Notes under the pieces: model-generated
Told to the model about the DNA's origin: nothing
Seen by the model: only the letters and a program-made list of their open reading frames with translations
Database searches by the model: none
IMG/VR virus record: IMGVR_UViG_2645727669_000007
Reading direction: 5' to 3' (one strand)
Origin: a virus
Lineage: Duplodnaviria; Heunggongvirae; Uroviricota; Caudoviricetes
DNA: 21,267 nt
Part shown: in pieces, positions 1 to 18,097 of the stretch
How the letters are laid out: every line of letters begins with the position of its first letter
How positions within the stretch are numbered: position 1 is the stretch's first letter
Program-made: the position numbers and the translations under genes

Positions 1-95
1 GGGGAGGAAGGAAACTACCGGATGGAAAGAGTCCCCCTAAAGCAGACTGACAGACATCACAAATCCCCGGGTGGGGATTTGTGTATAAGAGACAG
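1..95 (-). mobile_element. Terminus of an IS50-like (IS4-family) insertion sequence; 19-bp terminal inverted repeat at 77..95, element body lies left of the window
   Basis: Minus strand of 77..95 reads CTGTCTCTTATACACAAAT, which matches the IS50 outside end (CTGACTCTTATACACAAGT) at 17 of 19 positions as I recall it. The adjacent integrase reading frame loses homology exactly at this point. Confidence 0.55.
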
Positions 96-1115
96 CCGAG
101 TGGCAGGGAATACAAAACTGATACCCTTAAAGCGTGGTAAAGCTTTTAACAAGGCAACAGCAGCATCAGACAGAGGAACTCGATGCTCCTTCGCTGCTTT
201 CATTCGGCTTGCAGGTATGGTCCACGTTTTACCTTCAAGATCGATCTCTGACCACTCGGCACCACGAATTTCACCTGAGCGTGCTGCGGTCAGTATGGCA
301 AACTCAAGCGCACGAGGAGAAACGCCGCTTCGTTCACGTAGTTCTTTCATAAAAGAGCCGATCTGGTTATAGGGAAGGGCCGCATGGTGTTTGGTGATCT
401 GAACTTTACTTGGCTGAGGCAACAGAGGTTTCAGCATACCTTTCCATGCGGCAGGATTATCACCTTCAAAGTATTCTTTGGCCTTGGCGTAATCGATCAC
501 TGTTTCAATACGTCCACGTAGACGACTGGCAGTTTCATTCTTGGTTAACCAGATAGGTTCCAGTATTGCCAGAAGATCGACTTTGGTGATTTCACTAACG
601 GCCTTTTTGCCAATGAAAGGGTAGGCATAGGTTTCCAGTGTGGAACGCCATTGCGCGAGATGTTTTTTGTTCTTCATCTCACTGTCTTTGACCTCCAGCA
701 CTTCTTCACAACATTCGGCAAAGGTCTTTTTCTTCCGGGCCAGTATTTCCTGCCGGGCTTTTTGTTCGTGTTTTTCTTGAAGGGGATTAATACCATTACG
801 GATTTGTTTACGTAGCTCACGCGCTTTGTCACGCGCTTCGGCTAAGGAGACTTCCGGGTAAGGGCCAAGCCCCATATTCAAACGTCTTGGAACTGTTCTA
901 CCGAGATTGTTGATTCGGGTTCCCATAGCCACGCAAAGAACCCATGCACGGGACTGATTTCGGATGCGAAGGTATAAACCATCCACATTACCAACCGCAT
1001 ACATGCCTTCGGATTTTAATCGTGATACGACGAGTCCTGATAGTTCCTTGGCCCTTTCAATGGCATTCGTCACACTTGATACAGAGTTGGCACATTCCTT
1101 GGTATTCTTTAACAT
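96..1115 (-). pseudogene. P4-like tyrosine integrase, 3'-truncated by IS insertion (catalytic His/Arg/Tyr region missing)
   Basis: ORF 57..1115 has integrase N-terminal and core motifs (GLYLRI, PEVSLAEARDKAREL, ILTAARSGEIRGAEW) and ends after FVFPATR. The last 12 codons (57..95) are encoded by the IS terminus. The intact paralog at 3215..4483 continues about 110 residues past the equivalent point. Confidence 0.7.
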
Positions 1116-1316
1116 TACTTTTTATCAACATCAGAATTTCGCATGTAGAAGGTAATCTAAGGTATTGAAATACTTATTGTTATTGTGATATATATAACAT
1201 ATGCAATGATAAGCGCATTTATAGTTTGCGGGTAATTTTTATCTTTTACTGATGGTGTTTATTATTAATGATCATTAATGTAATATATATTAAAATTATT
1301 TTTATGAGGTTCTATT

Positions 1317-2432
1317 ATGTCTGTTAATGATGCCAAAAAACTTGCGGATAAACTTTTCCCAATATTTGATGATGATGATATTTCTATCGTTGATATTCCC
1401 CCTGAGCAGCGTCGATTGCATACCGAGACTTACGATTTTTCAATATCAACACTCGTCGACTATTTGAAAAATGGTACTGTGTTTATTCCTGATTTTCAAA
1501 GGAAATATGTTTGGAGTAGAGGGCAGGCATCAAGATTAATTGAGTCTTTAATAATCCAGTGTCCTATCCCTGTTATTTATTTAAACCAAGAGAAAGATGA
1601 GAGTTTATCTGTTATTGATGGTAATCAACGGTTGACTTCAATTAAACTATTTATTGAGGATGGTTTTGAATTACAGGGATTGACAGCATATCCAGAATTG
1701 GAGGGGAATTCGTTTTCATCACTGGACGCGAGATTCCGTAGGCATATTTTAAATCGCACATTGAGATGCATAACCATATTAAAAGAAACTCACCCTCAAA
1801 TTAAAATTGATGTTTTTGAAAGAATAAATACAGGTGCAGTACAATTAAATCCTCAGGAGGTACGTCATGGAGTTTATCATGGTCCATTATTTACTATGAT
1901 TGACGAAATAAGTGAGGAGAAAGTATGGAGAGACTTAACAGGAATTAAAAATGACACACGAATGAAGAATAATGAACTCATATTGAGAGCATTCGCACTT
2001 TCATATTCTGTGACACCATATAAAAAACCATTAAAGAAATTCCTTAATGATTTTAGTTCTGAAAAACAAAATATTGAACCTGATGTTGCCTTGGAGTGGC
2101 GTAGTAGATTTCTTGGTGCATTAAACTGTATTAATAAATTGTTTGGTAAAAAAGCATTTAGAATTCTAAATGAAAACTTAGAGCCTCAAGTAAGAAATTT
2201 CAATTCTGCTTTATTTGATGCTCTAATTGTCGGGTTTATGGTATCAAAATTTAATCAGGATATGATAAACGAACTTGATGCAACAAAACTTAAGGATTTC
2301 TTAATAGAGTTTCAAAGAATAACATCAGAGGAGCGTTTTAATGAGTCGATTACTTCTGGCACTTCGGCGACGCAATCGGTTCATTATCGTATTAGCACAA
2401 TGAAAAATTTCATTGAACGGTATTTCAACTGA
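1317..2432 (+). CDS. DUF262 (ParB/Srx-like, GmrSD N-terminal-type) domain protein with no fused DUF1524/HNH nuclease
   Basis: 371-aa ORF. GAGG sits 8 nt upstream of the ATG. N-terminal motifs DFQRKYVWS and IDGNQRLTS (DGQQR-like) are characteristic of DUF262. The C-terminal half looks helical with no His-Me finger visible by eye. The region is AT-rich relative to flanking DNA. Confidence 0.75.
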   Translation: MSVNDAKKLADKLFPIFDDDDISIVDIPPEQRRLHTETYDFSISTLVDYLKNGTVFIPDFQRKYVWSRGQASRLIESLIIQCPIPVIYLNQEKDESLSVIDGNQRLTSIKLFIEDGFELQGLTAYPELEGNSFSSLDARFRRHILNRTLRCITILKETHPQIKIDVFERINTGAVQLNPQEVRHGVYHGPLFTMIDEISEEKVWRDLTGIKNDTRMKNNELILRAFALSYSVTPYKKPLKKFLNDFSSEKQNIEPDVALEWRSRFLGALNCINKLFGKKAFRILNENLEPQVRNFNSALFDALIVGFMVSKFNQDMINELDATKLKDFLIEFQRITSEERFNESITSGTSATQSVHYRISTMKNFIERYFN

Positions 2433-3148
2433 TGGCATATATTAAAAGCGCATCTAGAAAACAATTCGAGCAGATTCATTCCAATTTGCTTGAACAGGTT
2501 CGTTATGTTTCAAAAATAAAAGAATTAAGAACAGATATTATACATAGTGTTTATAATAACGCGATATTTCGAGTTTCTGCTGCATTCGAAGATTATATTA
2601 AAGATGTTTTGGAAGATTGGATTGACATGCTGAACCAAAATAACGGATGCCTTTCGCATCTACCTGATGAAATTATCTTGTTTTCTTTATTCAAAAACCA
2701 AGAGAAAAATTTTATAAATTACGTTTCTCATGGTTCTGAGTCAATAATGATGAGTGACTTAAATAAGTGTAAGGATAAACTTCAGGCGTTATCGTCACCT
2801 AATTCTCCTGTAAAGCCTGTTATTGTCCCAAAACAGCTGATAATGGATAAAAAATATCCTTCCAAAAAAAATATCAAACTTCTTTTTAATAGATTTGGTA
2901 TCAAAGATATATTAAAAGCAATGACTGCGAAAGGTAAAAAAGATTATGAGTTCATGCTCCAGTCTTTCTCTGATAGCCGCACGGAGTTAGCCCATTCATA
3001 TTCTTCAATTAATCTTTCAAAAGATACTGTTATTGATAAGCTAAATAATGTTAAAGAAATTGTTAGGATTATGGATAGGATATTATATTCACATGTCTGT
3101 GATAAAAGTGGTAGTGAATACTGGAAAACAGAACTGTTAGCGATTTAG
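2432..3148 (+). CDS. Partner protein of the DUF262 gene; candidate HEPN-like effector (Rx4HxY motif)
   Basis: 238-aa ORF whose ATG overlaps the upstream stop (TGATG), indicating translational coupling. Contains SRTELAHSY (R-x4-H followed by Y) in the C-terminal third. No other family recognised by eye. Confidence 0.55.
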   Translation: MAYIKSASRKQFEQIHSNLLEQVRYVSKIKELRTDIIHSVYNNAIFRVSAAFEDYIKDVLEDWIDMLNQNNGCLSHLPDEIILFSLFKNQEKNFINYVSHGSESIMMSDLNKCKDKLQALSSPNSPVKPVIVPKQLIMDKKYPSKKNIKLLFNRFGIKDILKAMTAKGKKDYEFMLQSFSDSRTELAHSYSSINLSKDTVIDKLNNVKEIVRIMDRILYSHVCDKSGSEYWKTELLAI

Positions 3149-3155
3149 TATTAAT

Positions 3156-3176
3156 GCGGCTAATATCTTTAGCCGC
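3156..3176. terminator. Hairpin between convergent genes (possible bidirectional terminator)
   Basis: GCGGCTA / TAGCCGC 7-bp stem with a 7-nt loop, lying between the stop of 2432..3148 (+) and the stop of the integrase (-). No strong T-run follows. Confidence 0.3.
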
Positions 3177-3214
3177 ATTGAAGTTGAAGCAACCTTTGAC
3201 CACCATGTTTACTT

Positions 3215-4483
3215 TTATTGAGCAAACTCAAACGGCCTGACCATCCCATCCCGATTTGCATCAAGATAATCTGCCCACCACTGTAACATCAATCTTCTCT
3301 GTTCAAGATGTTTGGCCTTATGGGTATAGGCAGCACGCACACTGTTGCTTTCCTTGTGGCTCATCTGAAGTTCTACCGCATCTTTAGACCATAGCCCTGA
3401 TTCAATCAGAGCACTACATGCCAGTGTTCGGAAACCATGACCGCAGATGTCCTGCGTGGTGTCATAGCCCATCTTACGCAGCGCCTTGTTGATGGTGTTT
3501 TCACTCATGGGTTTGAATGAGTCATAACATCCAGTAAAAATTAATCCGGCGTCATTACCTTCTTCATAGGTAAGCTGACGGATCTCTTTCAGTATCTTAA
3601 GAGCCTGCCTGCAAAGGGGAACAAAGTGCTGGCGTTTCATTTTTGCGCCACGCGTGGAATATTTGACGCGCTCAATCACTTCACGCTTTTCTGGTATCAC
3701 CCATAACTTACTGTTGAAGTCGATTTCTGACCATCGTGCATAGCGGAGTTCACTGGAACGAATGAAAATCAACAGATTGAGTTTAATCGCCAGTGTGGTA
3801 AGTCCACGGCCTTTGTAGGCATCAATACGTTCAAGTAGCAGGGGGATCTCTTCCAGCTCCAGTGCGGGACGGTGCTCAGTCTCTGGTTTCTGCACAGCAC
3901 CTTCCATATCGTAAGCAGGATTATGGCGCATAAGTTTTTGCTGGACGGCGTGACGCAGGATGGCAGTGATGTATTGCTTGATCCGCATGGCAATTTCAAG
4001 ATAGCCAAGCGTTTCTGCTTTTTTTACCGGAACAAGCAGATCACCCGTATCCAGATCTGAAACGTTGCTGTCACCAATATCCGGGAATACATAGGTCTCA
4101 AGGCGCTTCCATACCGTATCGGCGTAATCTTCAGACCATTTTGTTTTGGTGGCAAACCAGCTTCTGGCGACGACACGGAACGAACGGGTTTTATCCCGCT
4201 TTTCCTGCAGAGTTTTTTCATCAGCCTGTTTTTTAGCGTTAGGATCGATTCCCTGAGCAAGCAGCTTTTTTGCTTCATCACGTCGTTGTCTGGCATCAGC
4301 AAGAGAAACCGCAGGGTAAACACCAATGGAAAACACTTTCTGTTTACCATCGAAGCGATAGCCTAACTGCCAGTATTTTGAACCATTGGGATGCAAAAGA
4401 AGGTAGAGACCAAATCCATCAGTGAGCTTGACGGCTTTTTCCGCTGGTCTGGCATTTTTTACTTTAGTATCAGTAAGTGACAT
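3215..4483 (-). CDS. P4-like tyrosine integrase (intact), tRNA-Asn associated
   Basis: Start MSLTDTKVKNARP is preceded by GGAGGG. Motifs GFGLYLLLHPNGSKYW, YPAVSLADARQRRDEAKK, HGFRTLACSALIESG and RAAYTHKAKHLEQRRLMLQWWADYLD are present. The ORF-track start at 4549 adds an unlikely 22-aa extension. The gene lies immediately downstream of the tRNA-Asn 3' end. Confidence 0.85.
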   Translation of the reverse strand: MSLTDTKVKNARPAEKAVKLTDGFGLYLLLHPNGSKYWQLGYRFDGKQKVFSIGVYPAVSLADARQRRDEAKKLLAQGIDPNAKKQADEKTLQEKRDKTRSFRVVARSWFATKTKWSEDYADTVWKRLETYVFPDIGDSNVSDLDTGDLLVPVKKAETLGYLEIAMRIKQYITAILRHAVQQKLMRHNPAYDMEGAVQKPETEHRPALELEEIPLLLERIDAYKGRGLTTLAIKLNLLIFIRSSELRYARWSEIDFNSKLWVIPEKREVIERVKYSTRGAKMKRQHFVPLCRQALKILKEIRQLTYEEGNDAGLIFTGCYDSFKPMSENTINKALRKMGYDTTQDICGHGFRTLACSALIESGLWSKDAVELQMSHKESNSVRAAYTHKAKHLEQRRLMLQWWADYLDANRDGMVRPFEFAQ

Positions 4484-4623
4484 GACGGTTCCCTCCGCGT
4501 GCTGGTAAAACGCAAATCGAACCAGCTTTACCAGCATTTTTACCAGCAAAGTAGTGTGGATTCGAGCGGTTTTTAACGAACGAGGGTGAACCTGAAGAAG
4601 GGGATAACCAGTTGATATAAATG

Positions 4624-4650
4624 CAGAAAACAGACGTCAGTGAACGTCTG
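4624..4650 (-). terminator. Rho-independent terminator downstream of tRNA-Asn
   Basis: Hairpin CAGACGT-cagtga-ACGTCTG (4631..4650) is followed on the minus strand by a TTTTCT run, and sits directly 3' of the tRNA. Confidence 0.6.
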
Positions 4651-4662
4651 CTTTCTTTAAAT

Positions 4663-4738
4663 TGGCTCCTCTGACTGGACTCGAACCAGTGACATACGGA
4701 TTAACAGTCCGCCGTTCTACCGACTGAACTACAGAGGA
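4663..4738 (-). tRNA. asnT: tRNA-Asn (anticodon GTT)
   Basis: Reverse complement reads TCCTCTGTAGTTCAGTCGGTAGAACGGCGGACTGTTAATCCGTATGTCACTGGTTCGAGTCCAGTCAGAGGAGCCA, a 76-nt cloverleaf with a CTGTTAA anticodon loop that matches E. coli tRNA-Asn as I recall it. The asnT assignment rests on the neighbouring mtfA and serU genes. Confidence 0.9.
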
Positions 4739-4838
4739 ATCGTGTGAACGGGGCGCATATTACTTAGCGGTACCTTGTCTGTCAACACTAAATTTCATAA
4801 GCCATTTCAATTGGTTAATTAATCTGCAAAGTTGTTAA

Positions 4839-5636
4839 TTAATGAACATTCGTCGCCGAAAACGAGTCTGTATTATTAGTGCGATGCAGTCTCTGCAAAG
4901 GATCTTGTTGATAAAATTGGCAGAAACGTTGCCACAATGAAGGGAAACGAGGAGCAAAAAGTTCTGGGGCGCTAAAGAAATATTCAGAAAGTACGGCAAA
5001 ACATTCAGCAGGATCACTGGCAGCATAAGCATCAATGCTCGCCGCATTCTCGCCAACCAATTCGATTTCTTCCTGAATGTTGTTCATTGCAGCATGAAGA
5101 TCGTGTTCCCAGCCAGCAACCTCACGCAACGGAATAAAGGGAACTCCGCTGGCGCGATCGCCGTTACGGGTGTCCAGCTTATGAGCGACTTCATGAATAA
5201 TCAGGTTAAAACCAGAAGCATCAAAAGAATCTTGTATATCCAACCAGTTCAAAACGATAGGCCCTTGCTGCCAGCTCTGACCTGACTGAACAATACGTTG
5301 GTTATGCACCAGACCGACATCGTCTTCCCATTCATCATCGACCACAAATGGCGCAGGATAAATTAAGACTTCATGAAAACCATCCAGCCATTCCAGTCCT
5401 AACTCCAGAACGGGCAGGCAAAATAGAAGTGCTATCCGGCAGCTTCTTAATGAATTCAGCTCAAAGCCCTGTAAAGGAACAAGCCGTTTTTGTTGTAAAA
5501 AACGTTCGGCAAGAGCGACTAATTTGCTTTGTTCCTGTTCTGTCAGACACGTTAAAAGGGGGATCGATAGTGCTTCCTGCCAGGGAAGGGCAGTTTGATG
5601 TGCTGATTCTTGTACTTTCCAGGGCCACTTAATCAT
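4839..5636 (-). CDS. mtfA: MtfA (Mlc titration factor A), zinc-dependent peptidase
   Basis: Protein begins [23 protein letters not shown] and carries the HEVAHK zinc motif. It matches E. coli MtfA/YeeI from memory. The ORF-track start at 5675 is an upstream in-frame extension. Confidence 0.9.
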
Positions 5637-5729
5637 CGTTTTGCTCGCAAACTCGTCACTTGAACAAAATTGCACGGACAGGGACTGTTAAAATGCCAAA
5701 TTTCCTGGCATCATGGCAACCATCTGAAC

Positions 5730-5819
5730 GGAGAGATGCCGGAGCGGCTGAACGGACCGGTCTCGAAAACCGGAGTGGGGGCAACTCCACCGGGGGTTCA
5801 AATCCCCCTCTCTCCGCCA
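5730..5819 (+). tRNA. serU: tRNA-Ser (anticodon CGA)
   Basis: 90-nt sequence GGAGAGATGCCGGAGCGGCTGAACGGACCGGTCTCGAAAACCGG...GGGGGTTCAAATCCCCCTCTCTCCGCCA with a long variable arm and terminal CCA. Anticodon loop is CTCGAAA. Confidence 0.9.
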
Positions 5820-5871
5820 AAATTCAATCACTTACACATCATTAAGTCAGTGACAAAAATCACACTTGGAA

Positions 5872-6897
5872 TTACTTGGAATATTTTCTTGGAATATTTT
5901 CAGGTAACGGGACATCAAGTGTTGGTGAAACTTTAACCTTCCTGTCATAGATTAGCACTTGCCCTTCGGTTTTGTGACCAGAGAAAAGTTGCTTATCCCG
6001 GCTGCTTCCTTCATAGTCTGAAATTCCTTTCGCCTTCAGATCATGAAAGGTGAAGTCGGTTAAAATACCTGAAATTTTTCCAGCACGATTTCTTGCTTCT
6101 ACCCACATTTCGTTAAAGCCTTTGTACATATATCGGTTGCCGTATTGATTGCTGATCACATAGGCAGATTTTGGTAACTGTTTTGCTTTTTCGATCGCTG
6201 CCTGTAATCGTGGACTCCATGCTTTTATCTGTTTTTTTCCGGTTTTCCCTTGCTGGATGAATATCCCGTCGTTTCCAATCTGTTCCCATTTCAGCGATAA
6301 CACATCGGAAACCCTCGCTGCACACAGATAGGCAATTTCCATTGCGATAAAAACAGGAAGAGGTGCAACGCTTAATACTGCCTGGTATTCTTTGTCGGTT
6401 ACATATCGTTCGCGGTTTTTGGCCTTGAATTTACTTACACCTGCACATGGGTTAGCCTTGACGTACCCTCGCTCATACCCCCAACTGTAAACACGGGACA
6501 TACTGCTTTTTTCATGGTTGGCTTGCGTTTTACTCTGCTCCCCTCTTTTGTCCATGTATCGACGGATGTGTTCTGGTTTTATGGAATCCGCTGGTACCTT
6601 ACCGAATACGGCAAGCAACTTTTTTTGATGTTGCAGATAATCTTTTTGTGTTCTTGGACTAAGGTCACTGTAATAGGCGCTGGCGAGGAATTTTTCCCAC
6701 AAGCGACCGAATGTCATTGCACGATCGCGATTATTTACAGTTTCCTCATACTTTTTCCATAAAGCAGCTAAACCATCCTTGATGGCGGTTAGTGTGACAG
6801 ATTCTCTGGATGTTGGTTTCCATACATAACTATATTTATTTGGGTATACATTTGGAGGTAATTTTTCGTGTTCAGGATTTTTCCTTCGTCTTCCCAT
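5872..6897 (-). CDS. int: Prophage tyrosine integrase (lambdoid), tRNA-Ser site
   Basis: 341-aa ORF directly downstream of the serU 3' end. Overlaps an excisionase-like ORF by 1 nt. A catalytic-domain-like region (AYLCAARVSDVLSLKWEQI ... HDLKAKG) is present. Confidence 0.8.
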   Translation of the reverse strand: MGRRRKNPEHEKLPPNVYPNKYSYVWKPTSRESVTLTAIKDGLAALWKKYEETVNNRDRAMTFGRLWEKFLASAYYSDLSPRTQKDYLQHQKKLLAVFGKVPADSIKPEHIRRYMDKRGEQSKTQANHEKSSMSRVYSWGYERGYVKANPCAGVSKFKAKNRERYVTDKEYQAVLSVAPLPVFIAMEIAYLCAARVSDVLSLKWEQIGNDGIFIQQGKTGKKQIKAWSPRLQAAIEKAKQLPKSAYVISNQYGNRYMYKGFNEMWVEARNRAGKISGILTDFTFHDLKAKGISDYEGSSRDKQLFSGHKTEGQVLIYDRKVKVSPTLDVPLPENIPRKYSK

Positions 6898-7100
6898 CAG
6901 ATCGCACCAAAATTCGGCTCTACCTCGCGTGGTGGTAAAGTTTTATTGCAGGTAAATAGATCCCGGCTGACAATCGGTTTGCCACTACGATTGGTATAGA
7001 ACGGAAGCCCGTTTTCCATTAACCATTTTCGCTGGTGGCTTGCATATTTGCAGCCCGTTAATATTAGCAATTCATCTTCGGTTAAAAATAAGCTGCTCAT
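6897..7100 (-). CDS. xis: Excisionase-like small DNA-binding protein
   Basis: 67-aa ORF immediately upstream of int with a 1-nt overlap. Position and size are typical of xis. Family assignment is by position and weak resemblance only. Confidence 0.5.
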   Translation of the reverse strand: MSSLFLTEDELLILTGCKYASHQRKWLMENGLPFYTNRSGKPIVSRDLFTCNKTLPPREVEPNFGAI

Positions 7101-7117
7101 AGCTATATCTCATAACC

Positions 7118-7143
7118 GCCGCTAACTATATACGGTTAGCGGC
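7118..7143. other. Strong hairpin between the recE-like gene and xis
   Basis: GCCGCTAAC / GTTAGCGGC 9-bp perfect stem with an 8-nt loop in the 58-bp intergenic gap. Confidence 0.3.
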
Positions 7144-7158
7144 AATTAGGGTTGAACA

Positions 7159-9600
7159 TTAAAAATCAGCCTGACTCGGGATCAGTTTTTGCCAGATAGC
7201 TGAAACGTATTTTGCCTGGTAACGAGCGTCATCAAGTGCATTATGGCGCTCACCTTCGAATGGGATAGCAGTTCTGGCATCGAAGTCTATGGCTTTCCCC
7301 AGCTCAACGATTGTGCGTACATCGCGATCGTTGCAGTAGCGCCATGGGCAGGGGATACCCTGTCGTTCGTATGAACGGCGTAAAATCACGTTGTCGAAGT
7401 TGGCCCCATTACCCCAGACCTGAACAAAAAATTCACCGGAGTTTTCGTCGATAAATTCCCGCAATTGCAGTAGTGCATCATCTAACGGGATTTCATCGGT
7501 CATAATGGCAGACTGCGCTTCACGTGATTGCTTCAGCCACCATTTAATGACGTCACGATCAATGACTCCGCCAGCAGTATCCAGATCGATGGTCTTGCTA
7601 AATTCCGGTCCCATATCTCCGGTTTGTGGATCGAAAAATATTGCGCCTATTGAGATAATCGGGGCATCGGGATTTTTTCCCATGGTTTCAAGGTCGATCA
7701 TCAGATGAATCCCCGCTCTGCTGGTGGATGTGAGCTTATGATGACCATTCACCTTAATTAAGGGATCTGTCGCCTCGCCAGTTTTATTATCGCTGGCGTG
7801 ATGCTGATTGCCGCCAGGGTTCTCCTTGTGTGGATGTTCAGCGCCTTCCATTTCCTCCGGATCATTTTCCTGAACTTCAACCTGATTCTCTTCATCGAAT
7901 GTTTCCTGGTATGTTGCGTCGCCCATCACCGCGCCACAATCAGGGCAGTTGCCGCCACCGCTCTGACCGCAGGCGGTGCAGACTTTTTCCGGTTCCTGTT
8001 GCGCTACTGGTTCGGATTGTTTCGTTTCTGGCTCGTTTTGTAACGCATTTGGGCTGTTTTGTTCCGCTTTTTGGTCGTTCCGTTCCGATTCATGCTGGTT
8101 CTGGTTCACAGAATCGCGAGTCTGGATCCCCTTGACCCATTTCGGATCATTAGGGTCGCTAATCCCCTCAACAAATTCACCACGCGATACAGCAAGTAAC
8201 TTATCGGCGTCAGGCTGGCTGATATTGGCTGCCTGCATAATTTTGTTTACTTCGTCAGCGGTGACTTTTACTTGGTTAGCGGAACTCACCTGCGACTGAG
8301 CATCCAGCGACTGCGCGTTCTGGCCATGTTCAGTTGTATCCGGTTCCATTGTTTCAGTTGTTGCCTGTTCACCTGCCATTGCGTCAGATGGTTGTGGTTT
8401 TTCTTCTTCTGTTTCACGCTCAGTAACCACCTCGCGGTTAATTTTTTCCAGGATATCTTTTTCCGGCGTATGCCGGGCAGCTGTGAGAGTTTCCTTGCTG
8501 GGGTTCTCGTGATCAGTTTCCGTCAAATAGGCGTTGATATACCCCTGAAGGCGTCCCGGGTAGTGATAAAATTCAGGGTGTGCGCTTCGGATAAGTGCAA
8601 AAATAGCGGCGCGGGAATAGTCCAGAATACCCGGGGTTGCACGAAGTGCTGCGGACCATTCTTTGAACGGACTTTCTTTGTTCAGGACTACTTCTTTTGC
8701 GCGACGATAAACGCTGCCCGGAATTTCATAAATATTAAAATCCATCGGAAGTGTGGCTGCTGCAATCTCCACATCCAGTGTGTCGAGGGTGTGTACTAAA
8801 TTCGGATTGCGATCGGTTTTGTTCCCACCGCCAGCATTAGCACCGGAAGCCGTGCGGGTGATGCGTGAAACACGATTTCCTTTCATCCACTCTTTTGTCA
8901 GCAGACCCCGATCAGTGTAGTCAGCGTCCAGGTATGCTTCGAAAAAAGCAGTTATTAGTCCCAGGTCTGAATTACCAGGATTAGGGAAAACTTTGTCAGT
9001 GTCACGAACCAGTTTGTGGAGGTCGCGAATCTCCAGCGAGTCGAGCAGACTGGTTTTATGCGAAATAGCCAGGGCAGTAACAGCCGGTAGTTCTTCAGCC
9101 CGTGCAATGTGTAATGCCTGGAGTTCGTCGCGTGAAACGTGCGTTACTGGTTTTTCGCTGCCGTGTTGAGCAAGCCAACGAATGGGCAGTTCCTGACCGG
9201 AGACAGGCAGAAGCATGCTCTCCTCAATCTCAGTCATGTCTTCGCCGTTGATGTTGGTATTGTCAGTGCTGGCTGGTTTGTCCTGAACAGAGGGGGAAGG
9301 GCCGATAAATGTCATTGTGATGCCATCTTTCCCGCCTTTTTCATAGCGGTTGCAGAATTCAGTATCAAACACGCCTTCTGGCGGAAGGTCGTCAACAACG
9401 GGCAAATTGACGCGGACGGGTTTTTTAAAGTCGTCTTCATCATAATCGTTGTCATCCATTGCGGTAATGCAGCGGGAGATTGCAACAGATAATTTTTTTG
9501 CTGTAGTCCAGTAAAAACCACCTTTAATTCCTAGGCGTTTTCTTACTTTGTCATTTTTTGCTTCGCAATATAGTGCAAATTCTTCTTTATCAGTGCTCAT
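7159..9600 (-). CDS. RecE-family (exodeoxyribonuclease VIII-like) prophage protein with C-terminal DEDDh 3'-5' exonuclease domain
   Basis: 813-aa ORF. The C-terminus has DEDDh motifs: LMIDLETMG (exo I), WGNGANFDNVIL (exo II), HNALDDARY (exo III). The central region is acidic and low-complexity with a CTACGQSGGGNCPDCG zinc-ribbon-like motif. The N-terminal region resembles RecE from memory. Confidence 0.65.
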   Translation of the reverse strand: MSTDKEEFALYCEAKNDKVRKRLGIKGGFYWTTAKKLSVAISRCITAMDDNDYDEDDFKKPVRVNLPVVDDLPPEGVFDTEFCNRYEKGGKDGITMTFIGPSPSVQDKPASTDNTNINGEDMTEIEESMLLPVSGQELPIRWLAQHGSEKPVTHVSRDELQALHIARAEELPAVTALAISHKTSLLDSLEIRDLHKLVRDTDKVFPNPGNSDLGLITAFFEAYLDADYTDRGLLTKEWMKGNRVSRITRTASGANAGGGNKTDRNPNLVHTLDTLDVEIAAATLPMDFNIYEIPGSVYRRAKEVVLNKESPFKEWSAALRATPGILDYSRAAIFALIRSAHPEFYHYPGRLQGYINAYLTETDHENPSKETLTAARHTPEKDILEKINREVVTERETEEEKPQPSDAMAGEQATTETMEPDTTEHGQNAQSLDAQSQVSSANQVKVTADEVNKIMQAANISQPDADKLLAVSRGEFVEGISDPNDPKWVKGIQTRDSVNQNQHESERNDQKAEQNSPNALQNEPETKQSEPVAQQEPEKVCTACGQSGGGNCPDCGAVMGDATYQETFDEENQVEVQENDPEEMEGAEHPHKENPGGNQHHASDNKTGEATDPLIKVNGHHKLTSTSRAGIHLMIDLETMGKNPDAPIISIGAIFFDPQTGDMGPEFSKTIDLDTAGGVIDRDVIKWWLKQSREAQSAIMTDEIPLDDALLQLREFIDENSGEFFVQVWGNGANFDNVILRRSYERQGIPCPWRYCNDRDVRTIVELGKAIDFDARTAIPFEGERHNALDDARYQAKYVSAIWQKLIPSQADF

Positions 9601-9693
9601 TATTGGTAAACCTCATCACAGATTTAAGTGTGAACAAATCTCTGCCATTGCTGACATATAAGAATGAAACTGGATATTTATTACGGTGCTGTT

Positions 9694-9885
9694 TTAAAAT
9701 CCTGCCGGGATTTCGTTATTATCCTGGTGAATAACTTTATCGACCGGATAACAGTTGCCTGGAATTTTCTGTTCGGTTGCTGCTGCCATACATTCCTGCA
9801 TTGTTCTGTGAACACTGACTGCAATATCAACTGGCTCTCCGGAAACAAGAAAAACCGTCAGAATAAGTGCAAATACTGGATTCAT
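9694..9885 (-). CDS. ydfD: YdfD-like small membrane (lysis-associated) protein
   Basis: 63-aa product MNPVFALILTVFLVSGEPVDIAVSV... whose ATG overlaps the dicB stop (ATGA). Matches Qin-prophage YdfD from memory. Confidence 0.5.
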   Translation of the reverse strand: MNPVFALILTVFLVSGEPVDIAVSVHRTMQECMAAATEQKIPGNCYPVDKVIHQDNNEIPAGF

Positions 9886-10070
9886 TGTGCACATCCTTTT
9901 GGCATCAGACGTAAACGGGCCAGCATTGAAACAATGCATACTTTATTTAATAACTCCCGTTCGTGTTTTCTTTTGTTAATGGCATCTTCAGTAAATACAG
10001 GATTACTGATAGTGACACCAATTTCAAAACAACCTTCAGACGTATTAACGTTTGGTAATAACGTTTTCAT
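9882..10070 (-). CDS. dicB: DicB cell-division inhibitor (MinC-activating)
   Basis: 62-aa product MKTLLPNVNTSEGCFEIGVTISNPVFTEDAINKRK...MPKGCAQ lies directly downstream of the DicF sequence. Length and sequence match DicB from memory. Confidence 0.65.
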   Translation of the reverse strand: MKTLLPNVNTSEGCFEIGVTISNPVFTEDAINKRKHERELLNKVCIVSMLARLRLMPKGCAQ

Positions 10071-10239
10071 TTTCGCGCCCTCAACAATGAGTTTTGTGAT
10101 GCGGTGCCTGGTGCCTCCAGGTGACGTTAACCAGTTAACAATTAACGCCGGATACAGAGAATCCACCCATAACACTGTTTTTGGTTTTAACTGTTCCGCG
10201 TGCGCTTAGCCGCATTCACCGCATCACAAAATTCACTTT

Positions 10240-10297
10240 AAAAAGGGCGGCAGAGCAGTCACGGAGTAAAACTGATACCGCCAAACGTCACCAGAAA
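10240..10297 (-). ncRNA. dicF: DicF small RNA (ftsZ-targeting sRNA) with intrinsic terminator
   Basis: Minus strand reads TTTCTGGTGACGTTTGGCGGTATCAGTTTTACTCCGTGACTGCTCTGCCGCCCTTTTT. This matches the DicF sequence as I recall it and includes a GGCGG...CCGCC stem plus U-run. It lies between the ydfC-like and dicB genes, as in the Qin dicB operon. Confidence 0.7.
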
Positions 10298-10637
10298 ATT
10301 GATAACAGAGGGCGTTGCAGCGGAGTTGTCACTTAAGCGTATGGTCAACCTGACAACCCGGTGTCCTCAACGGGGAAGGAATAACCCCGCCATACTTACC
10401 GCCGCGCCATTTCGCGGAGTGCCACAACCGGAAGCGCACGGTCGACGAAAATTTAACGACAGGCTATCTATGAACCAGCTACCTCGCCGTGCGCTTTCGC
10501 GTTATGGTCTGACTTTTCATGGAAATATCCTTTCAGTAAACTGTCAGTGCCGGATGCTCACCCGTGTCCGGCGCACGCACTCCACCTCACCCGTGGAGAA
10601 CTCCTTAATTACCAACCTTAGCTTCGTTGGTTAGCTA

Positions 10638-10856
10638 TTAACGCGGGTATGTAATCATTCTGGCAATGCTTAATGCCGCTGCTTTTTCCAGATTGGTGAT
10701 ATCCTGCTCCAGAGCGGACAGATTTTCAGCCTGCTTAGCCCTGGCTTCATTGGCCCATTTCAGATCCTGCGCTGCATTAATTTTCTGGCGCATCCACTCA
10801 TAAAGTTCATCATCGGTATAGTCTGGCGCGATGATGACGGGTTCTCGTTTCTGCAT
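10638..10856 (-). CDS. ydfC: YdfC-like prophage protein (coiled-coil)
   Basis: 72-aa ORF with GAGGAA upstream, in the dicB operon position between the ydfB-like gene and dicF. Confidence 0.5.
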   Translation of the reverse strand: MQKREPVIIAPDYTDDELYEWMRQKINAAQDLKWANEARAKQAENLSALEQDITNLEKAAALSIARMITYPR

Positions 10857-10885
10857 ACTGATTCCTCGCGGTGCTGCTTCGCTTA

Positions 10886-11014
10886 TCAGCCGTTAGATTT
10901 TGCCGAGCTGGAAAGCGCCTGTTTAAACTCACTGAAGCTGAGAGCTTCTTCGCCTTCGGCAAGGCCTTCGAAGTATTCTTCGTAAGTCTTTTCCATGATT
11001 GTGTCGAAATCCAT
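10886..11014 (-). CDS. ydfB: YdfB/YdaG-like small acidic protein
   Basis: 42-aa ORF MDFDTIMEKTYEEYFEGLAEGEEALSFSEFKQALSSSAKSNG, absent from the ORF track because it is under 60 aa. Has an AGGTGAGTG ribosome-binding site and fits the operon context. Confidence 0.45.
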   Translation of the reverse strand: MDFDTIMEKTYEEYFEGLAEGEEALSFSEFKQALSSSAKSNG

Positions 11015-11015
11015 A

Positions 11016-11171
11016 TCACTCACCTGAGTTTCTTTCCAGCCAGCGACGGGCACCATTTTCGGTTTTAAACGTTTTGCTTTTGGTATACGTCATCGCGGTG
11101 AATGTGCCGTCCTGGTTGGGAAACACGCCGTACACCAGAGATTCGTTGTTGCCAAGATCGATAGTATCCAT
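11016..11171 (-). CDS. ydfA: YdfA/YdaF-like (DUF1391-type) small prophage protein
   Basis: 51-aa product MDTIDLGNNESLVYGVFPNQDGTFTAMTYTKSKTFKTENGARRWLERNSGE with GAGG upstream. It is the first gene of the leftward early operon. The ORF-track start at 11252 is an unlikely extension. Confidence 0.5.
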   Translation of the reverse strand: MDTIDLGNNESLVYGVFPNQDGTFTAMTYTKSKTFKTENGARRWLERNSGE

Positions 11172-11326
11172 GTTGACCTCATTTCCCCTTAACGCCGGGG
11201 TAGCGGAACAAAAACCTGCTGCATAGTTATTAAAGTTGAACCCTGCCGTCATGTTCTTACGCCTCGGGCTGGCTACTTAACCCCTGACCACTGCCTGGTA
11301 ACTCGAAGTATTGCCCTGCATTCTGT

Positions 11327-11351
11327 GGGGTGGGGTGGGGTGGGGTGAGGG
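11327..11351 (+). repeat. (GGGGT)4 G-tract repeat, canonical G-quadruplex motif
   Basis: GGGGTGGGGTGGGGTGGGGTGAGGG read directly in the intergenic region between the cI-like gene and the early-left operon. Confidence 0.8.
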
Positions 11352-11474
11352 AATGAATGAAGTTTAGAAAAATGAACTTTTTAGGTCAATGTTTTTTTTA
11401 TCAAAACATTTTAAGCAGGCAGCTGTTAAGCCATCGCCACGATGGCATACAGTTAATCAAATAGATGAGGTTGG

Positions 11475-12113
11475 TTAAATATCTTGTTGAATTTTAAAGC
11501 ATACGCCCAATATGCAAGATAGATCATCCAGCATAATTGAAGGGTAGCGAGGATTCGTGGGGACTAAAAGAATATCCGGCCCTTCTATCTCCAGTTTACG
11601 AATGACAGGTGTTGTGGTCCCTTTGGGTAAGGCAAGGACAATATTTCCTGGTTGTACGGTTCGATCGGGATCAACAAAAACTGTTGAACCATTTGGGATG
11701 GAAACTCCCCCACCAGATGTTGACATACTGTCACTCTCTAGAACAACTGCAAAGGTATTGGCCGGGATTTCTCCGACAAGCTGCACACAAGAGGTTATTG
11801 AGGAATTTTTCATATAATCACTCCAGCTTGCTGCCTGCTGAAGTGATAGTAGCGGAACCGTTTTTATCGGCGGTAAAGATAGATCAAGCGAATCACCTGT
11901 ATTTAACTCTCCTCCATTAAGAAGCCAATTTTCGTTTACTTTCAATATCTTTGCCAGTGAACTTATGTAACGCGAGGACGGCGCTCCTCCACCGTTCATC
12001 CATTGACTTACGGAGCCTTTTGATGCGCCAGTGGCATTGACAAGGTCTTTGCCTTTCAGGTTTAGCGCATGCATACGTTGGGTTATGCGTTCAGATATTG
12101 TTTGCTTGCTCAT
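11475..12113 (-). CDS. CI-like prophage repressor (N-terminal HTH, C-terminal S24/LexA-like peptidase domain)
   Basis: 212-aa ORF. HTH region is LKGKDLVNATGASKGSVSQWMNG. The S24 region has a Ser motif (LESDSMS) and Lys motif (PVIRKLEIEG). It is transcribed divergently from a cro-like gene. Confidence 0.85.
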   Translation of the reverse strand: MSKQTISERITQRMHALNLKGKDLVNATGASKGSVSQWMNGGGAPSSRYISSLAKILKVNENWLLNGGELNTGDSLDLSLPPIKTVPLLSLQQAASWSDYMKNSSITSCVQLVGEIPANTFAVVLESDSMSTSGGGVSIPNGSTVFVDPDRTVQPGNIVLALPKGTTTPVIRKLEIEGPDILLVPTNPRYPSIMLDDLSCILGVCFKIQQDI

Positions 12114-12204
12114 GTTTTGATTTTAAAACACAGATGGTTTTGTTTCTTGACTTTCTTTGGTTTTGATTATTAAACTTTTGGCGTTCAGTTTTATGGAGCG
12201 ACTC
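12114..12204. promoter_or_regulatory. Divergent cI/cro promoter-operator region with three repeated GTTTTG(A/T)TT motifs
   Basis: 91-bp gap containing ATGTTTTGATTTT, TGGTTTTGTTTC and TGGTTTTGATTA, spaced roughly 21 to 24 bp apart, plus a TTGACT hexamer. Confidence 0.4.
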
Positions 12205-12435
12205 ATGAAAAAATCAGAAGTATTAGGCTATTTTGGCGGAGTTGTTAAAACAGCCGCAGCTCTAGGAACGTCAAAAACCACAGTCAGCATGTGGGGGGAA
12301 GAGGTTCCGTGGAAATGGGCGTTGCTAATTCAGGCAGTCACTGCCGGGGCGCTCAAATATGAGTTACACATACCGACGGTTGTCATTCCCGGTTCTGATC
12401 ATAATCCGCCTTCTAACCAAGGGGAGGATTCATGA
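12205..12435 (+). CDS. Cro-like (DicC/YdaS-family) small DNA-binding regulator
   Basis: 76-aa product MKKSEVLGYFGGVVKTAAALGTSKTTVSMWGEEVP... with GGAG upstream, divergent from the repressor. The ORF-track start at 12157 is an extension. Confidence 0.6.
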   Translation: MKKSEVLGYFGGVVKTAAALGTSKTTVSMWGEEVPWKWALLIQAVTAGALKYELHIPTVVIPGSDHNPPSNQGEDS

Positions 12436-12857
12436 AAATCAAGCATGAACACATCCGCATGGCGATGAATGCCTGGGCGCGTCCTGATGGCGAAAAAGTT
12501 CCAGCAGCTGGAATAACCCAGGCTTATTTTGAGTTGGGTATGACGTTTCCTGAACTGTATGACGACAGCCATCCGGAAGCCTTGGCTCGCAATACCCAGA
12601 AAATTTTCCGCTGGGTAGAGAAAGACACCCCTGATGCAGTTGAAAAAATTCAGGCGTTGTTACCAGCGATCGAAAAGGCAATGCCACCTTTGCTGGTGGC
12701 CAGAATGCGCAGCCACAGTTCAGCTTATTTTCGGGAGCTGGTGGAGACGCGGGAGCGATTGGTGAGAGACGCTGATGATTTTGTCGCAGTGGCAATCGCC
12801 GGTTTCAATCAGATGAACCGTGGTGGCCCGGCAGGAAATGCTGTGGCAGTACATTGA
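12432..12857 (+). CDS. YdaT-like prophage protein (CII position)
   Basis: 141-aa ORF whose ATG overlaps the cro stop (ATGA) and is preceded by GGAGGA. Family assignment is by position and from memory of YdaT only. Confidence 0.4.
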   Translation: MKIKHEHIRMAMNAWARPDGEKVPAAGITQAYFELGMTFPELYDDSHPEALARNTQKIFRWVEKDTPDAVEKIQALLPAIEKAMPPLLVARMRSHSSAYFRELVETRERLVRDADDFVAVAIAGFNQMNRGGPAGNAVAVH

Positions 12858-12928
12858 CTGACAATAGCCATATCGAATCGCTTCCGGCAACTCGTGAGTA
12901 AAAAGATTCGGTATCAGAAGAGGTGAGT

Positions 12929-13999
12929 ATGGCTAACGCCTGGCTCAGATTATGGCATGACATGCCAAATGACCCTAAGTGGCGAACAATTGCCAGGGTG
13001 TCAGGGCAGCCAATTGCAACAGTGATGGCAGTGTATATCCACCTCCTGGTGAGCGCGTCACGAAATGTCACGCGAGGTCACATTGATGTCACGACAGAAG
13101 ATTTGGCAAGTGCGCTCGACGTAACAGAAGAGGTAATTGATTCAATTTTGCAGACGATGCAGGGGCGGGTACTTGATGGTGATTTAATCACTGGATGGGA
13201 AAAACGCCAAGTGCTTAAAGAGGACAACGGCAATATATCGCAAACCGCAAAATCTCCTGCAGAGCGCAAGAGGGCGCAGCGAGAGAGGGAAAGAAAGCGG
13301 GAACAAAATGGCGATTGTCACGGCGCGTCACGAAATGTCACGCACATGTCACGACGAGTCACGACAGATAAAGATACAGATAAAGATACAGATCAAGAAG
13401 ATCAAAATACTATGGTCCATGGCGTAAAAAACGCCACGAACCAGGCAGGGGATGTTCAGGCCGTCAATCCTGGTCAGCCAGCAGGCACGACACCGGAAGC
13501 CGATTCAGCGTATGCGCTGAAAGCCGATTCGGGCGCTGTGCAGCAGGTGATGACCGCAAGGCCGGAGCAATCACACCAACTGCAGCAGCCTGAAGCCGAT
13601 TCCGCCATTCAGCGGGAAGCCGATCGGGTAGTTCCGGAAAACACCGGGCAGTCTGTGGGACGAGTGGATTATCCGGATGTGTTCGAACAGGTCTGGCGGG
13701 AGTACCCGTTGCGTGCTGGGGCAAACCCGAAGAAATCCGCTTTCAGTGCCTGGAAGGCCAGATTACGCGAGGGGGTGCCACCAGAGGCCATGCTGGATGG
13801 CGTGAGGCGTTACGCAAGATATCTGGCGGCTACCGGGAAAGCGGGAACGGAATTTGTTCAGCGAGCGACGACGTTTTTTGGACCGGACCGGAATTTTGAA
13901 AACCCCTGGTTGCTCCCGGTAAGCGGTACGAATAACCAGCGTTGCGTGAATCACATTTCTGAACCAGATACCGAAATTCCACCGGGCTTCAGGGGGTAA
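12929..13999 (+). CDS. Phage replication initiation / replisome-organizer-like protein containing the origin iterons
   Basis: ATG at 12929 with GAGGTGA upstream (the ORF track starts at a GTG at 12923). N-terminus is WLRLWHDMPNDPKWRTIARV. There is an acidic KDTDKDTDQEDQ linker. Two iteron arrays lie inside the coding sequence. Confidence 0.55.
   Translation: MANAWLRLWHDMPNDPKWRTIARVSGQPIATVMAVYIHLLVSASRNVTRGHIDVTTEDLASALDVTEEVIDSILQTMQGRVLDGDLITGWEKRQVLKEDNGNISQTAKSPAERKRAQRERERKREQNGDCHGASRNVTHMSRRVTTDKDTDKDTDQEDQNTMVHGVKNATNQAGDVQAVNPGQPAGTTPEADSAYALKADSGAVQQVMTARPEQSHQLQQPEADSAIQREADRVVPENTGQSVGRVDYPDVFEQVWREYPLRAGANPKKSAFSAWKARLREGVPPEAMLDGVRRYARYLAATGKAGTEFVQRATTFFGPDRNFENPWLLPVSGTNNQRCVNHISEPDTEIPPGFRG
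13057..13093. repeat. Iteron array 1: four GTCAC(G/A) repeats at 10-11 bp spacing
   Basis: GTCACG at 13057, 13067 and 13088, with GTCACA at 13077, read directly from the sequence. Confidence 0.7.
13317..13363. repeat. Iteron array 2: five GTCACG repeats at 10-11 bp spacing, followed by an A-rich GATAAAGATACAGATAAAGATACAGATCAAGAAGATCAAAAT tract
   Basis: GTCACG at 13317, 13327, 13337, 13348 and 13358. The first 21 bp (GCGCGTCACGAAATGTCACGC) are identical to array 1. Confidence 0.7.
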
Positions 14000-14039
14000 G
14001 TGTTGATTTCTGGTCATGAGGTAATTTTCAGGAGGACTT

Positions 14040-14462
14040 GTGGCAAAAGTTTTTACACAAGAAGAGCGAGAAAAAATTAAAGGGCAGGTTGTTGAACTCG
14101 TACGCCAGAGTGGGCGTGAGACGTTACGGCAACTGGAAGTCAAGACAGGTGCGACAAGATATCTGATGAGCGTTCTCGCAAGAGAGCTGGTTGCCAGCGG
14201 CGATGTATACAACTCTGGTTACGGGTTATTCCCGTCTGAACAGGCGCGTAAGGACTGGCAAAATGCCCGTAAAAAGCTCTCAAGGGCAAAGCTGAAGAAA
14301 CCATCTGCGGTTGATCCGGACCTTATCTGGTCATTACCTGATGGAGAAATACGTCGTTACGACAGGCGTCATAATATAATTTGTACTGAGTGTCGTAAAA
14401 GCGAAGTTATGCAGCGGATATTGTCGTTTTATCAGGGGGATGTTCGGTATTTTTTGAAGTGA
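14040..14462 (+). CDS. Hypothetical prophage protein
   Basis: 140-aa ORF with a GTG start 4 nt after AGGAGG. Basic residues and a CTECRK motif. No family recognised. Confidence 0.4.
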   Translation: MAKVFTQEEREKIKGQVVELVRQSGRETLRQLEVKTGATRYLMSVLARELVASGDVYNSGYGLFPSEQARKDWQNARKKLSRAKLKKPSAVDPDLIWSLPDGEIRRYDRRHNIICTECRKSEVMQRILSFYQGDVRYFLK

Positions 14463-14700
14463 CGAGATTAAAGTGCATTAGTTCAGATGTAAATTGACAT
14501 TTTGTGGCACAGGGTAGAGCTAGCGTGGTTGTCCGCTTTGTGCCAAAAGCAGACATTGATAACATTGAGATATGTTAATTTATAGGGAGCAGCTCAAGGC
14601 CCACTGGAACTTCCAGTTTTTGCCCCTGAAACCGTTCCCAATGAGCACTTCCATCTGAAGACTGCGCAGTCTTAGTTTTCGTTGCCTTTAGTTTATCCCT

Positions 14701-16035
14701 TTATGATACCGATAAAAACTTTTTTTTAATTTCTGCTGCCGTTTTCTCCATGCTGGGATATACAGTGCTTTCGGATATATTAAGCTGCGCCAGCTCTTCC
14801 AGAATTTTATTTTTGTTCGCTATCTCCACTCTGTTAAGAGGAAACTCAGCATCTGTTTCCGGTAAAATGGGATCAAGTCCGAACAGAAGAAAAGCTCCTG
14901 CCTGAGATTGTATGCGTTCATTATTTATTTTAGCCTTAAGGAAAACAACTTTCCTTAAGTCATCAGGAATTATTCTGTTTCTAAAATATGATTTTTCATT
15001 CTGTATAAGGTCTGCAAGTTTATCAGTGAGTTCAGATAACTCCATATTACCTTTTCTGGAATCAGAGGAGGACAATTTTTCCAACTCTTCGTAAGATAAA
15101 AGTGATAAGTTTGCTATACAGCTCACTGTATCTGAGTCGAAATATTTAATTTTCTTTCTATTTGTTGAAAACGAAATCACCTGTCCGTTTTCATTGGGGT
15201 TCGAACAGCAAGCAAAATATAATGCTATCAGTGGGTTAGATGTAATGTCTAAGAGTCTTGTAGGCAAGCCATAATGCTGCATGCGGACAAGTTTATCAAT
15301 CGTAAATTTATCCTCCTTAAATTCATTTGGTCTTGCGCTGAGTATTTCACGTACTAAATCAGATTCTGAAGCAAGATGCCTGTACGTCCCGTTTTGATTT
15401 TTTCTGTAAAGAGAGGGGACAAGCTCATATGAGCTTTTAGAGTGTCCACGATAAAAGGTAATGAGACCATCACGAAAGTTTTTCTTTATGAAATTAAGAT
15501 AATCTATAATATTCTCGACTACTGGGTATGTTTGTTTTTTTAATTTGATTGTACCTTTGGGGTGACTATTTTGTTTGTTTAAACCAAGTGATTCCAGAAC
15601 AATATTTAAATCCTTATTTTTTACTGCCCAATGTGTACGGCTTAACCCGAAAGATCCTAGCCCTAGGGTTTCTTTATATAATGTCGTTTGGGGATTCGTT
15701 ATTTCTCCAAAATTATGATTAATCTTGAAAGAAAATAAAATATCGCCACCATCTTTACGTAAATTTCTTATTTCCCCAAGTCTGATCCTGATGTACTTGT
15801 TTGTATCATATTCATCATCTTTTGTATAAGTTTCGGTCATGAACAATACTGGTAGCTTGGCGAGTTCTCTTAAGGTATCGGGTCTTATTGGTGTTAATTT
15901 ACTGTAAATATCGCTTGGGGTGCCTTCCAGCATGCGGGACATCGAGAATCTTTCCTCGCCTTCTGTAAGCCCTGGGTCCATACACGGCCAGCGGTCAAAA
16001 ACGTCCGGTTCTCCGGCCATGATTAAGCTAAACAT
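14701..16035 (-). CDS. FRG-domain protein (defense-associated moron)
   Basis: 444-aa ORF with AGGAG 6 nt upstream of the ATG. FRG-domain signature: ITFYRGHSKSSYELVPSLYR and MQHYGLPTRLLDITSNPLIALYFA. Markedly AT-rich and in opposite orientation to the flanking prophage genes. Confidence 0.65.
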   Translation of the reverse strand: MFSLIMAGEPDVFDRWPCMDPGLTEGEERFSMSRMLEGTPSDIYSKLTPIRPDTLRELAKLPVLFMTETYTKDDEYDTNKYIRIRLGEIRNLRKDGGDILFSFKINHNFGEITNPQTTLYKETLGLGSFGLSRTHWAVKNKDLNIVLESLGLNKQNSHPKGTIKLKKQTYPVVENIIDYLNFIKKNFRDGLITFYRGHSKSSYELVPSLYRKNQNGTYRHLASESDLVREILSARPNEFKEDKFTIDKLVRMQHYGLPTRLLDITSNPLIALYFACCSNPNENGQVISFSTNRKKIKYFDSDTVSCIANLSLLSYEELEKLSSSDSRKGNMELSELTDKLADLIQNEKSYFRNRIIPDDLRKVVFLKAKINNERIQSQAGAFLLFGLDPILPETDAEFPLNRVEIANKNKILEELAQLNISESTVYPSMEKTAAEIKKKFLSVS

Positions 16036-16528
16036 CGCAATCTCCTAAATTTACTTGCTAAAGTCAGTGTACTTTTATCATGTTGCTTCATTGTGTATGA
16101 AAGTAACATTGGTTGTCCATGCTCGTTTGTCTCTCATAATTCACAAATTTGCGAATATTTTTTATAAAAAATTCAAAACAGATAGGTTGACACAATCAAA
16201 ATTCACAAAGGGCACCTGCTTCTAATGTGGTTACGGCCCGATCATACGGGCAATGTCTTTCCATTATTGAAAACTCCGGGATCAACCATGATATATGAAG
16301 TCTCTTGCTATCCAGTTAAGTAAATGTCTGCTTCTCGCTCAAAGTGGGCTAGAAGGTTAGCTTGCGTCGGACTTGGCGTATTTAAAGAAGTGCTGGTGGT
16401 GACTGGTTATTGTGTTCCATTTCTACAGAACAAAATCACAGAAACTATACCCAATAGTTGTATTGAATCACTGACGAGACAGCCTCATATTTATCAGGAC
16501 TGATGTACGTCCAATACAGGAGGTTGTG

Positions 16529-16618
16529 GTGCTGGTTCTCAAATGTGCGCTGGCTATTGCTGCCTTAATGGCAATTTATTGCCTTGCTGTTGTTCTTATG
16601 GATCGCCTTTCTGACTGA
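16529..16618 (+). CDS. Candidate 29-aa hydrophobic peptide (type I toxin-like)
   Basis: AGGAGG at 16518..16523, then a 5-nt spacer and a GTG start. Product MLVLKCALAIAALMAIYCLAVVLMDRLSD has a single predicted transmembrane helix. Not in the ORF track because it is under 60 aa. Confidence 0.25.
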   Translation: MLVLKCALAIAALMAIYCLAVVLMDRLSD

Positions 16619-18096: not shown

Positions 18097-18097
18097 C

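Follow-up and report, generated by a model that had tools for sequence, protein, structure and literature searches.

The window, by which we mean the whole stretch of DNA analysed here (21,267 nucleotides), is the complete contig JHSM01000052.1 of the Escherichia coli draft assembly GCA_001265975.1, to which it was assigned by an exact-protein match of the fusion open reading frame (ORF) at positions 57-1115. On each side the contig stops 95 bases inside a copy of the insertion sequence (IS) ISEc13. The copy at the left edge is referred to as copy A and that at the right edge as copy B, and the terminal inverted repeats of the element as IRL (inside-end-like side) and IRR (outside-end-like side). 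The features of the window, in order of position, were as follows.

1..95, minus strand: last 95 nt (nt 1456-1550) of ISEc13 copy A, outside-end-like (IRR) side; 95/95 identical to an intact copy and to many E. coli genomes.
57..1115, minus strand: integrase-IS fusion ORF, the island integrase cut by copy A at 95/96, running from its N-terminus into the IS with a stop at 57.
58..83, minus strand: subterminal 11-bp hairpin overlapping the inner part of IRR (dG -18.6 kcal/mol, z -4.5 against shuffles).
77..95, minus strand: IRR, 19-bp terminal inverted repeat CTGTCTCTTATACACAAAT, 17/19 to the IS50 outside end.
80-88: DnaA-box-like TTATACACA within IRR, its putative role taken from IS50 biology.
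96..103: predicted right-hand target-site duplication of copy A, CCGAGTGG; the left-hand copy lies outside the contig.
96..21172: segment between the ISEc13 copies, 21,077 bp, made up of an island remnant, asnT-mtfA-serU and the left arm of a lambdoid prophage.
1317-2432: GmrSD_N/DUF262 gene.
2432-3148: HEPN_RiboL-PSP gene.
3215-4549, minus strand: P4-like integrase.
4663-4738, minus strand: asnT, tRNA-Asn.
4839-5675, minus strand: mtfA.
5730-5819, plus strand: serU, tRNA-Ser(CGA).
5872-6897: prophage integrase, start of the lambdoid left arm.
19531-20352: Q antiterminator, with TerB-like and DUF3927 genes after it.
21165..21172: predicted left-hand target-site duplication of copy B, CTGTGCGG.
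21173..21191, plus strand: IRL, 19-bp terminal inverted repeat CTGTCTCTTGATCAGATCT, identical to the IS50 inside end.
21173..21267, minus strand: first 95 nt (nt 1-95) of ISEc13 copy B, inside-end-like (IRL) side; 94/95 identical to an intact copy.
21175..21205, minus strand: perfect 13-bp hairpin taking in most of IRL and the transposase stop codon (dG -21.6 kcal/mol, z -4.6).
21182-21185, 21187-21190 (both in IRL) and 21195-21198 (a third): GATC (Dam) sites, with Dam regulation suggested by IS50 biology.
21184..21267, minus strand: 3' end of the ISEc13 transposase gene, last 27 codons and TGA stop, translating to the C-terminus of the 457-aa transposase.

Positions 96-4762 matched E. coli E2348/69 at 99.8%, and the asnT-mtfA-serU region, which has its native order and usual neighbours, matched the same strain at 98.5%. 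In many genomes mtfA, serU and the prophage are contiguous without an IS. The prophage arm follows the order integrase, exonuclease VIII, repressor and Cro, replication genes, FRG-domain gene, hok, DUF968, RusA and Q. The island carried in the window sits at asnW, by yeeO, in E2348/69 and is here joined to asnT-mtfA-serU (positions 96-5834 compared with loci L001 and L072); the switch falls in the tRNA-Asn region, at 4654-4762, and would be explained either by island integration at another asn tRNA gene or by an asnT-asnW inversion.

Two proteins encoded in the segment were matched to PADLOC families. The GmrSD_N/DUF262 protein corresponds to NsnA (E 5.6e-83), and the HEPN_RiboL-PSP gene lies next to its gene and overlaps it; the pair is placed between two integrase genes, beside the tRNA-Asn gene, and is also present in E2348/69. 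Positions 1317-3148 look like a small candidate anti-phage defence module. The 444-aa FRG-domain protein of the prophage, encoded at 14701-16035 on the minus strand, was matched to the candidate defence family PDC-S15 (E 2.6e-99), and in related prophages its position is variable, with YobI-ATPase, QueH, RelB/ParE or others found there.

The ends of IS50 were searched for in the window. The inside end, which we take from established knowledge to be CTGTCTCTTGATCAGATCT, had a single match, at 21173-21191 on the plus strand with 0 mismatches (19/19). A single match was also obtained for the outside end (CTGACTCTTATACACAAGT), at 77-95 on the minus strand with 2 mismatches (17/19), reading CTGTCTCTTATACACAAAT. 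In shuffled controls with up to 3 mismatches allowed, the chance expectation was 0.01 for the inside end and 0.00 for the outside end. Both termini had been named in the original prediction, the left edge as outside-end-like at 17 of 19 positions and the right edge (21173-21191) as identical to the IS50 inside end, and both were recovered as described. Over its first 16 nt IRR is identical to the Tn5 mosaic end; oligonucleotides printed in PMC3347997 agree with the sequences used for the outside end and the mosaic end. On the minus strand, 21184-21267 encode VVMWDGWFRLQDMVEGYLVMKSLDQEI followed by a stop, the TGA being located at 21184-21186 and so within the 19-bp repeat. It had also been proposed that a transposase C-terminus ends inside the right-hand repeat and that its protein tail diverges from that of IS50; this was confirmed, and the tail is the C-terminus of the ISEc13 transposase.

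The two edge sequences proved to be the opposite ends of one and the same 1550-bp copy of ISEc13 in strain RM14723 (locus L003, 2501-4050), lying on the same strand: window 21173-21267 aligned to L003 2501-2595 with 94/95 identities and window 1-95 to L003 3956-4050 with 95/95. The near-identity to the reference ISEc13 holds for both edges, and the matched places are annotated as 'IS4-like element ISEc13 family transposase' (NCBI). ISEc13 is listed with 1550 bp in the IS4 family (PMC6650469, Table 2). Complete E. coli genomes contain thousands of matches to the 95-nt edge sequences. The single mismatch of copy B is at ISEc13 nt 93 (window 21265) and is synonymous (GTA to GTC, Val). The G at nt 93 had no full 95-nt match among the complete E. 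coli genomes listed; it may be a lineage-specific IS variant or an error at the contig tip.

Domain and structure matches of the transposase were made on an intact reference copy of ISEc13, not on the window copies. The 457-aa protein matched Tn5 transposase structures (PDB) over its full length (E 4e-82) and was 41% identical to the Tn5 transposase over 436 aligned residues, with the residues of the DTT, DREAD and YxxRxxxExxxK motifs aligned between the two. Pfam PF14706 (Tnp_DNA_bind) and PF01609 (DDE_Tnp_1) were found above their cut-offs, and PF02281 (Dimer_Tnp_Tn5) scored 24.4 bits, under its cut-off of 26.7 bits. IS50 proper was rejected, the transposase being only 41% identical. Beyond the 19-bp ends the DNA of ISEc13 is presumably unrelated to that of IS50.

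Judged by its sequence, ISEc13 belongs to the IS50 group of the IS4 family, with a Tn5-type DDE transposase and IS50-type 19-bp ends. Its IRL equals the inside end at 19/19 positions, including the two GATC sites of that end, and its IRR equals the outside end at 17/19, including TTATACACA. As in IS50, the transposase gene runs from the outside-end side and has its stop codon within the inside end, the protein has the Tn5-type three-domain DDE architecture and the target duplications are short, at 8-9 bp (7-9 bp across the ISEc13 sites examined). ISEc13 differs from IS50/Tn5 in carrying strong subterminal hairpins at both ends; these are predicted structures and may act as a block to read-through or as terminators. 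It also differs from Tn5 in arrangement, since Tn5 consists of inverted IS50 copies whereas the copies in the window are direct. Compared with the ISEc13 references, the window copies are alike at element level save for the synonymous nt 93, and only the insertion sites are new. The element is the catalogued ISEc13, and nothing in the arrangement is unusual for an E. coli lineage rich in IS.

Among 5426 complete E. coli genomes, ISEc13 ends were present in 1375-2464; the number of places per genome had a median of 1 and a maximum of 32, and was about 30 in E2348/69. The IRL end was found in 2464 genomes and the IRR end in 1375, and on plasmids in 1004 and 240 places, respectively. Since IRL-end matches outnumber IRR-end matches, partial ISEc13 copies exist. 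In the four E2348/69-type genomes NC_011601.1, CP059840.2, LT827011.1 and LT903847.1, window 1-1200 matched 30, 30, 29 and 28 places; their genome sizes, in the same order, are 4.97, 4.94, 4.85 and 4.79 Mb and fall with the number of matches. This joint fall is consistent with IS-mediated deletions in the E2348/69 lineage.

That the window ends inside the element on both sides is probably a trace of short-read assembly. Exactly 95 nt of IS per side is what we would expect a de Bruijn-graph assembler to leave at a collapsed repeat. The contig edges being repeat-collapse boundaries, the visible part of each ISEc13 copy is limited to 95 nt and the outer flanks lie outside the contig; and a contig broken at ISEc13 implies two or more copies of it in the genome, with flanks that differ. 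In a scan of GTDB genomes with the transposase, ISEc13 was found as a separate contig of 1551-1552 bp in two other draft assemblies, and for Escherichia the scan returned only such collapsed ISEc13 contigs of 1.55 kb.

Both insertion sites are found uninterrupted elsewhere. The left site reads ...GTTGTCCCTT/CCGAGTGGCAGGG across 95/96 in E2348/69, where the integrase is already a frameshifted pseudogene. In the window the integrase-IS fusion ORF contains the Pfam domains Arm-DNA-bind_3 and Phage_int_M but only the first half of Phage_integrase, and by exact-protein match the fusion protein occurs only on JHSM01000052.1 and in one similar place. The right site reads ...AATCCCCCTGTGCGG/AGGGGCAATC across 21172/21173 in eight genomes and is located in the lambdoid prophage, downstream of the Q antiterminator gene and between the DUF3927 and SASA-esterase genes.

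The geometry of ISEc13 targets was surveyed at loci L003 and L020-L071. Five distinct ISEc13 sites in complete genomes had duplications of 7-9 bp, and when relatives at 40-77% transposase identity were included (40-98% over ISEc13 and relatives as a whole), 17 distinct sites with perfect duplications were found, mostly of 8-10 bp. At these 17 sites the eight bases on each side of the duplication were complementary at a mean of 5.8 of 8 positions (chance 2). The pattern consists of a C-rich arm, a duplication of 8-10 bp and a complementary G-rich arm, so that the element lies in the loop of a palindrome rich in GC, in many cases resembling a terminator hairpin. A GC-rich target is also used by IS186. 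Within the IS4 family, targeting of REP sequences by ISRm22 and palindromic targets of Tn5 were reported (PMC1525189); ISEc13 likewise enters short GC-rich palindromes, and the C-rich/8-10 bp/G-rich pattern given here for the ISEc13 type rests on the 17 sites surveyed. Both window junctions (88-110 and 21158-21180) fit it, as tgtCCCTT/CCGAGTGG/CAGGGaat and aatCCCC/CTGTGCGG/AGGGGcaa, which supports them as true transposition junctions. As CCGAGTGG and CTGTGCGG differ, a single event making both inner junctions is not indicated.

The order from left to right is IRL...IRR in both copies and the transposase gene is on the minus strand; with both copies on the same strand, they are direct repeats. 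The original prediction had stated that both edge elements point the same way, and that the segment with both tRNA islands is bracketed by direct repeats of one IS type. The first agrees with the position of both edges on one strand of a single ISEc13 copy, and the second holds over 95 nt on each side. The possibility that the two ends come from unrelated elements was tested and is not the case, both edges being ISEc13, and the left-end match did not lose its support, the left 95 nt being identical to ISEc13. Neither ISEc13 junction of the window was found in any of the 5426 complete E. coli genomes.

From the native asnT-mtfA-serU order and from the sites that are uninterrupted elsewhere, two separate insertions are indicated and not a transposed unit; copies A and B are most likely two independent in-situ ISEc13 insertions. 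Copy A would have entered an already decaying island integrase gene beside the tRNA-Asn gene, and copy B a small GC-rich palindrome that lies between the DUF3927 and SASA-esterase genes of the serU prophage. Separate insertions predict an outer left junction of ...GTTGTCCCTTCCGAGTGG followed by IRL, CTGTCTCTTGATCAG..., and an outer right junction of IRR, ...TGTGTATAAGAGACAG, followed by CTGTGCGGAGGGGCAATC. Two neighbouring copies would share an orientation by chance in 50% of cases. We consider it very probable that the whole account is correct, namely that at least two ISEc13 copies were inserted separately in the same orientation and that the contig ended at the collapsed repeat.

One or both edges could also be remnants of ISEc13 and not complete, active copies. 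The excess of IRL-end over IRR-end matches in genomes and on plasmids speaks for such remnants in general. Against it, the junctions in the window fall exactly at the IS termini, in sites of the element's own target geometry, and the identity to intact copies is 95/95 and 94/95. We regard remnants at these edges as improbable, and infer that copies A and B are full-length.

Composite transposons with direct IS repeats include Tn9 (IS1) and the IS26 pseudo-compound transposons. The window resembles these in that two direct copies of one IS bracket a segment, as seen here over 95 nt of each, and differs from them in that its cargo consists of native chromosomal DNA, the unit occurs in a single context and movement is not indicated. 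ISEc13-21 kb-ISEc13 would in that case be a unit of approximately 24 kb that reached this position, or moves from it, as a whole, by means of the left copy's IRL and the right copy's IRR. Two direct copies do offer, at their outer limits, the IRL and IRR pair on which the transposase acts in a single copy, and IS-bracketed modules including ISEc13 were described as 'pseudo-compound transposons' (PMC13533425). Against this stand the native asnT-mtfA-serU cargo, whose tRNA genes are occupied by an island and a prophage in the manner of other E. coli, and the two inner junctions, which are simple interruptions of sequences continuous in other strains. The junctions are absent from the 5426 complete E. 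coli genomes, in which the unit was not seen in a second context, and the cargo is not foreign to the site. A composite transposon is very unlikely here.

It is equally hard to believe that the contig and one ISEc13 form a circle of approximately 22.6 kb, either an excised translocatable unit or plasmid-like, whose edges are the two ends of one copy. The direct orientation of the edges is as expected for a circle, and the assembly graph would be the same in both cases. The contig carries chromosomal core genes with half an island and half a prophage, and no replication or partition module was found beyond the prophage genes, all of which argues against a circle; moreover, the IS would not have broken the contig unless differently flanked copies were also present, and excised circles, being normally rare, would presumably not dominate an assembly. 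Contamination of the left edge by Nextera (Tn5 mosaic-end) adapter, suggested by the first 16 nt of the repeat (CTGTCTCTTATACACA) near a contig end, was ruled out with near certainty, as the genuine ISEc13 match spans all 95 nt (95/95 to copies in complete genomes), repeat positions 17-18 are AA where the mosaic end has TC, and 76 nt separate the repeat from the contig tip, while at 95/96 it borders on genomic sequence.

Among the relatives surveyed, contigs 020 and 022 of Alishewanella jeotgali (L028 and L040) carry two copies of a related IS whose flanks have been swapped: gcagttgacc occurs in the left flank of L040 as well as in the right flank of L028, and gcaatagc is common to the remaining two. 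On these sequences, the swapped flanks are the footprint of IS-IS recombination. As such recombination can swap flanks, some caution applies to the independent insertion of the two copies at the window sites.

Returning to two separately inserted copies, ISEc13 would work as a cut-and-paste IS with two non-identical 19-bp ends: as in IS50, the transposase would recognise both ends, IRL and IRR, cut the element out and join it to a target opened by a short staggered cut. As IRL keeps two GATC sites and IRR keeps TTATACACA, modulation of ISEc13 by Dam and DnaA would be plausible by analogy with IS50. The two direct repeats of approximately 1.5 kb, 21 kb apart, could be substrates of RecA-dependent deletion, which would remove the segment and one IS copy as a circle and leave one IS behind, with the loss of asnT, mtfA, serU, the candidate defence genes and the prophage integrase, immunity and Q region. 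Deletion of the segment by recombination between the copies is plausible on general grounds; neither its loss nor its movement was seen in the material analysed. The outermost IRL and IRR could in principle serve composite transposition as well; that the ISEc13-bracketed block of approximately 24 kb is an active translocatable unit, which excises as a circle or transposes via the outer IRL and IRR, is a reading to which we give very little credence.

Symmetrical IS ends at the window edges of draft assemblies are usually repeat-collapse boundaries, and the identity of ISEc13 accounts for where this contig ends. It also gives the element its name, ISEc13 and not IS50, and beyond annotation its importance is slight. 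If the bracketed block were active, it would carry candidate anti-phage genes and two tRNA genes from one replicon to another. By repeat recombination, the 21-kb segment with asnT, mtfA, serU, the candidate NsnA-type pair and the prophage integrase, repressor and Q could be lost.
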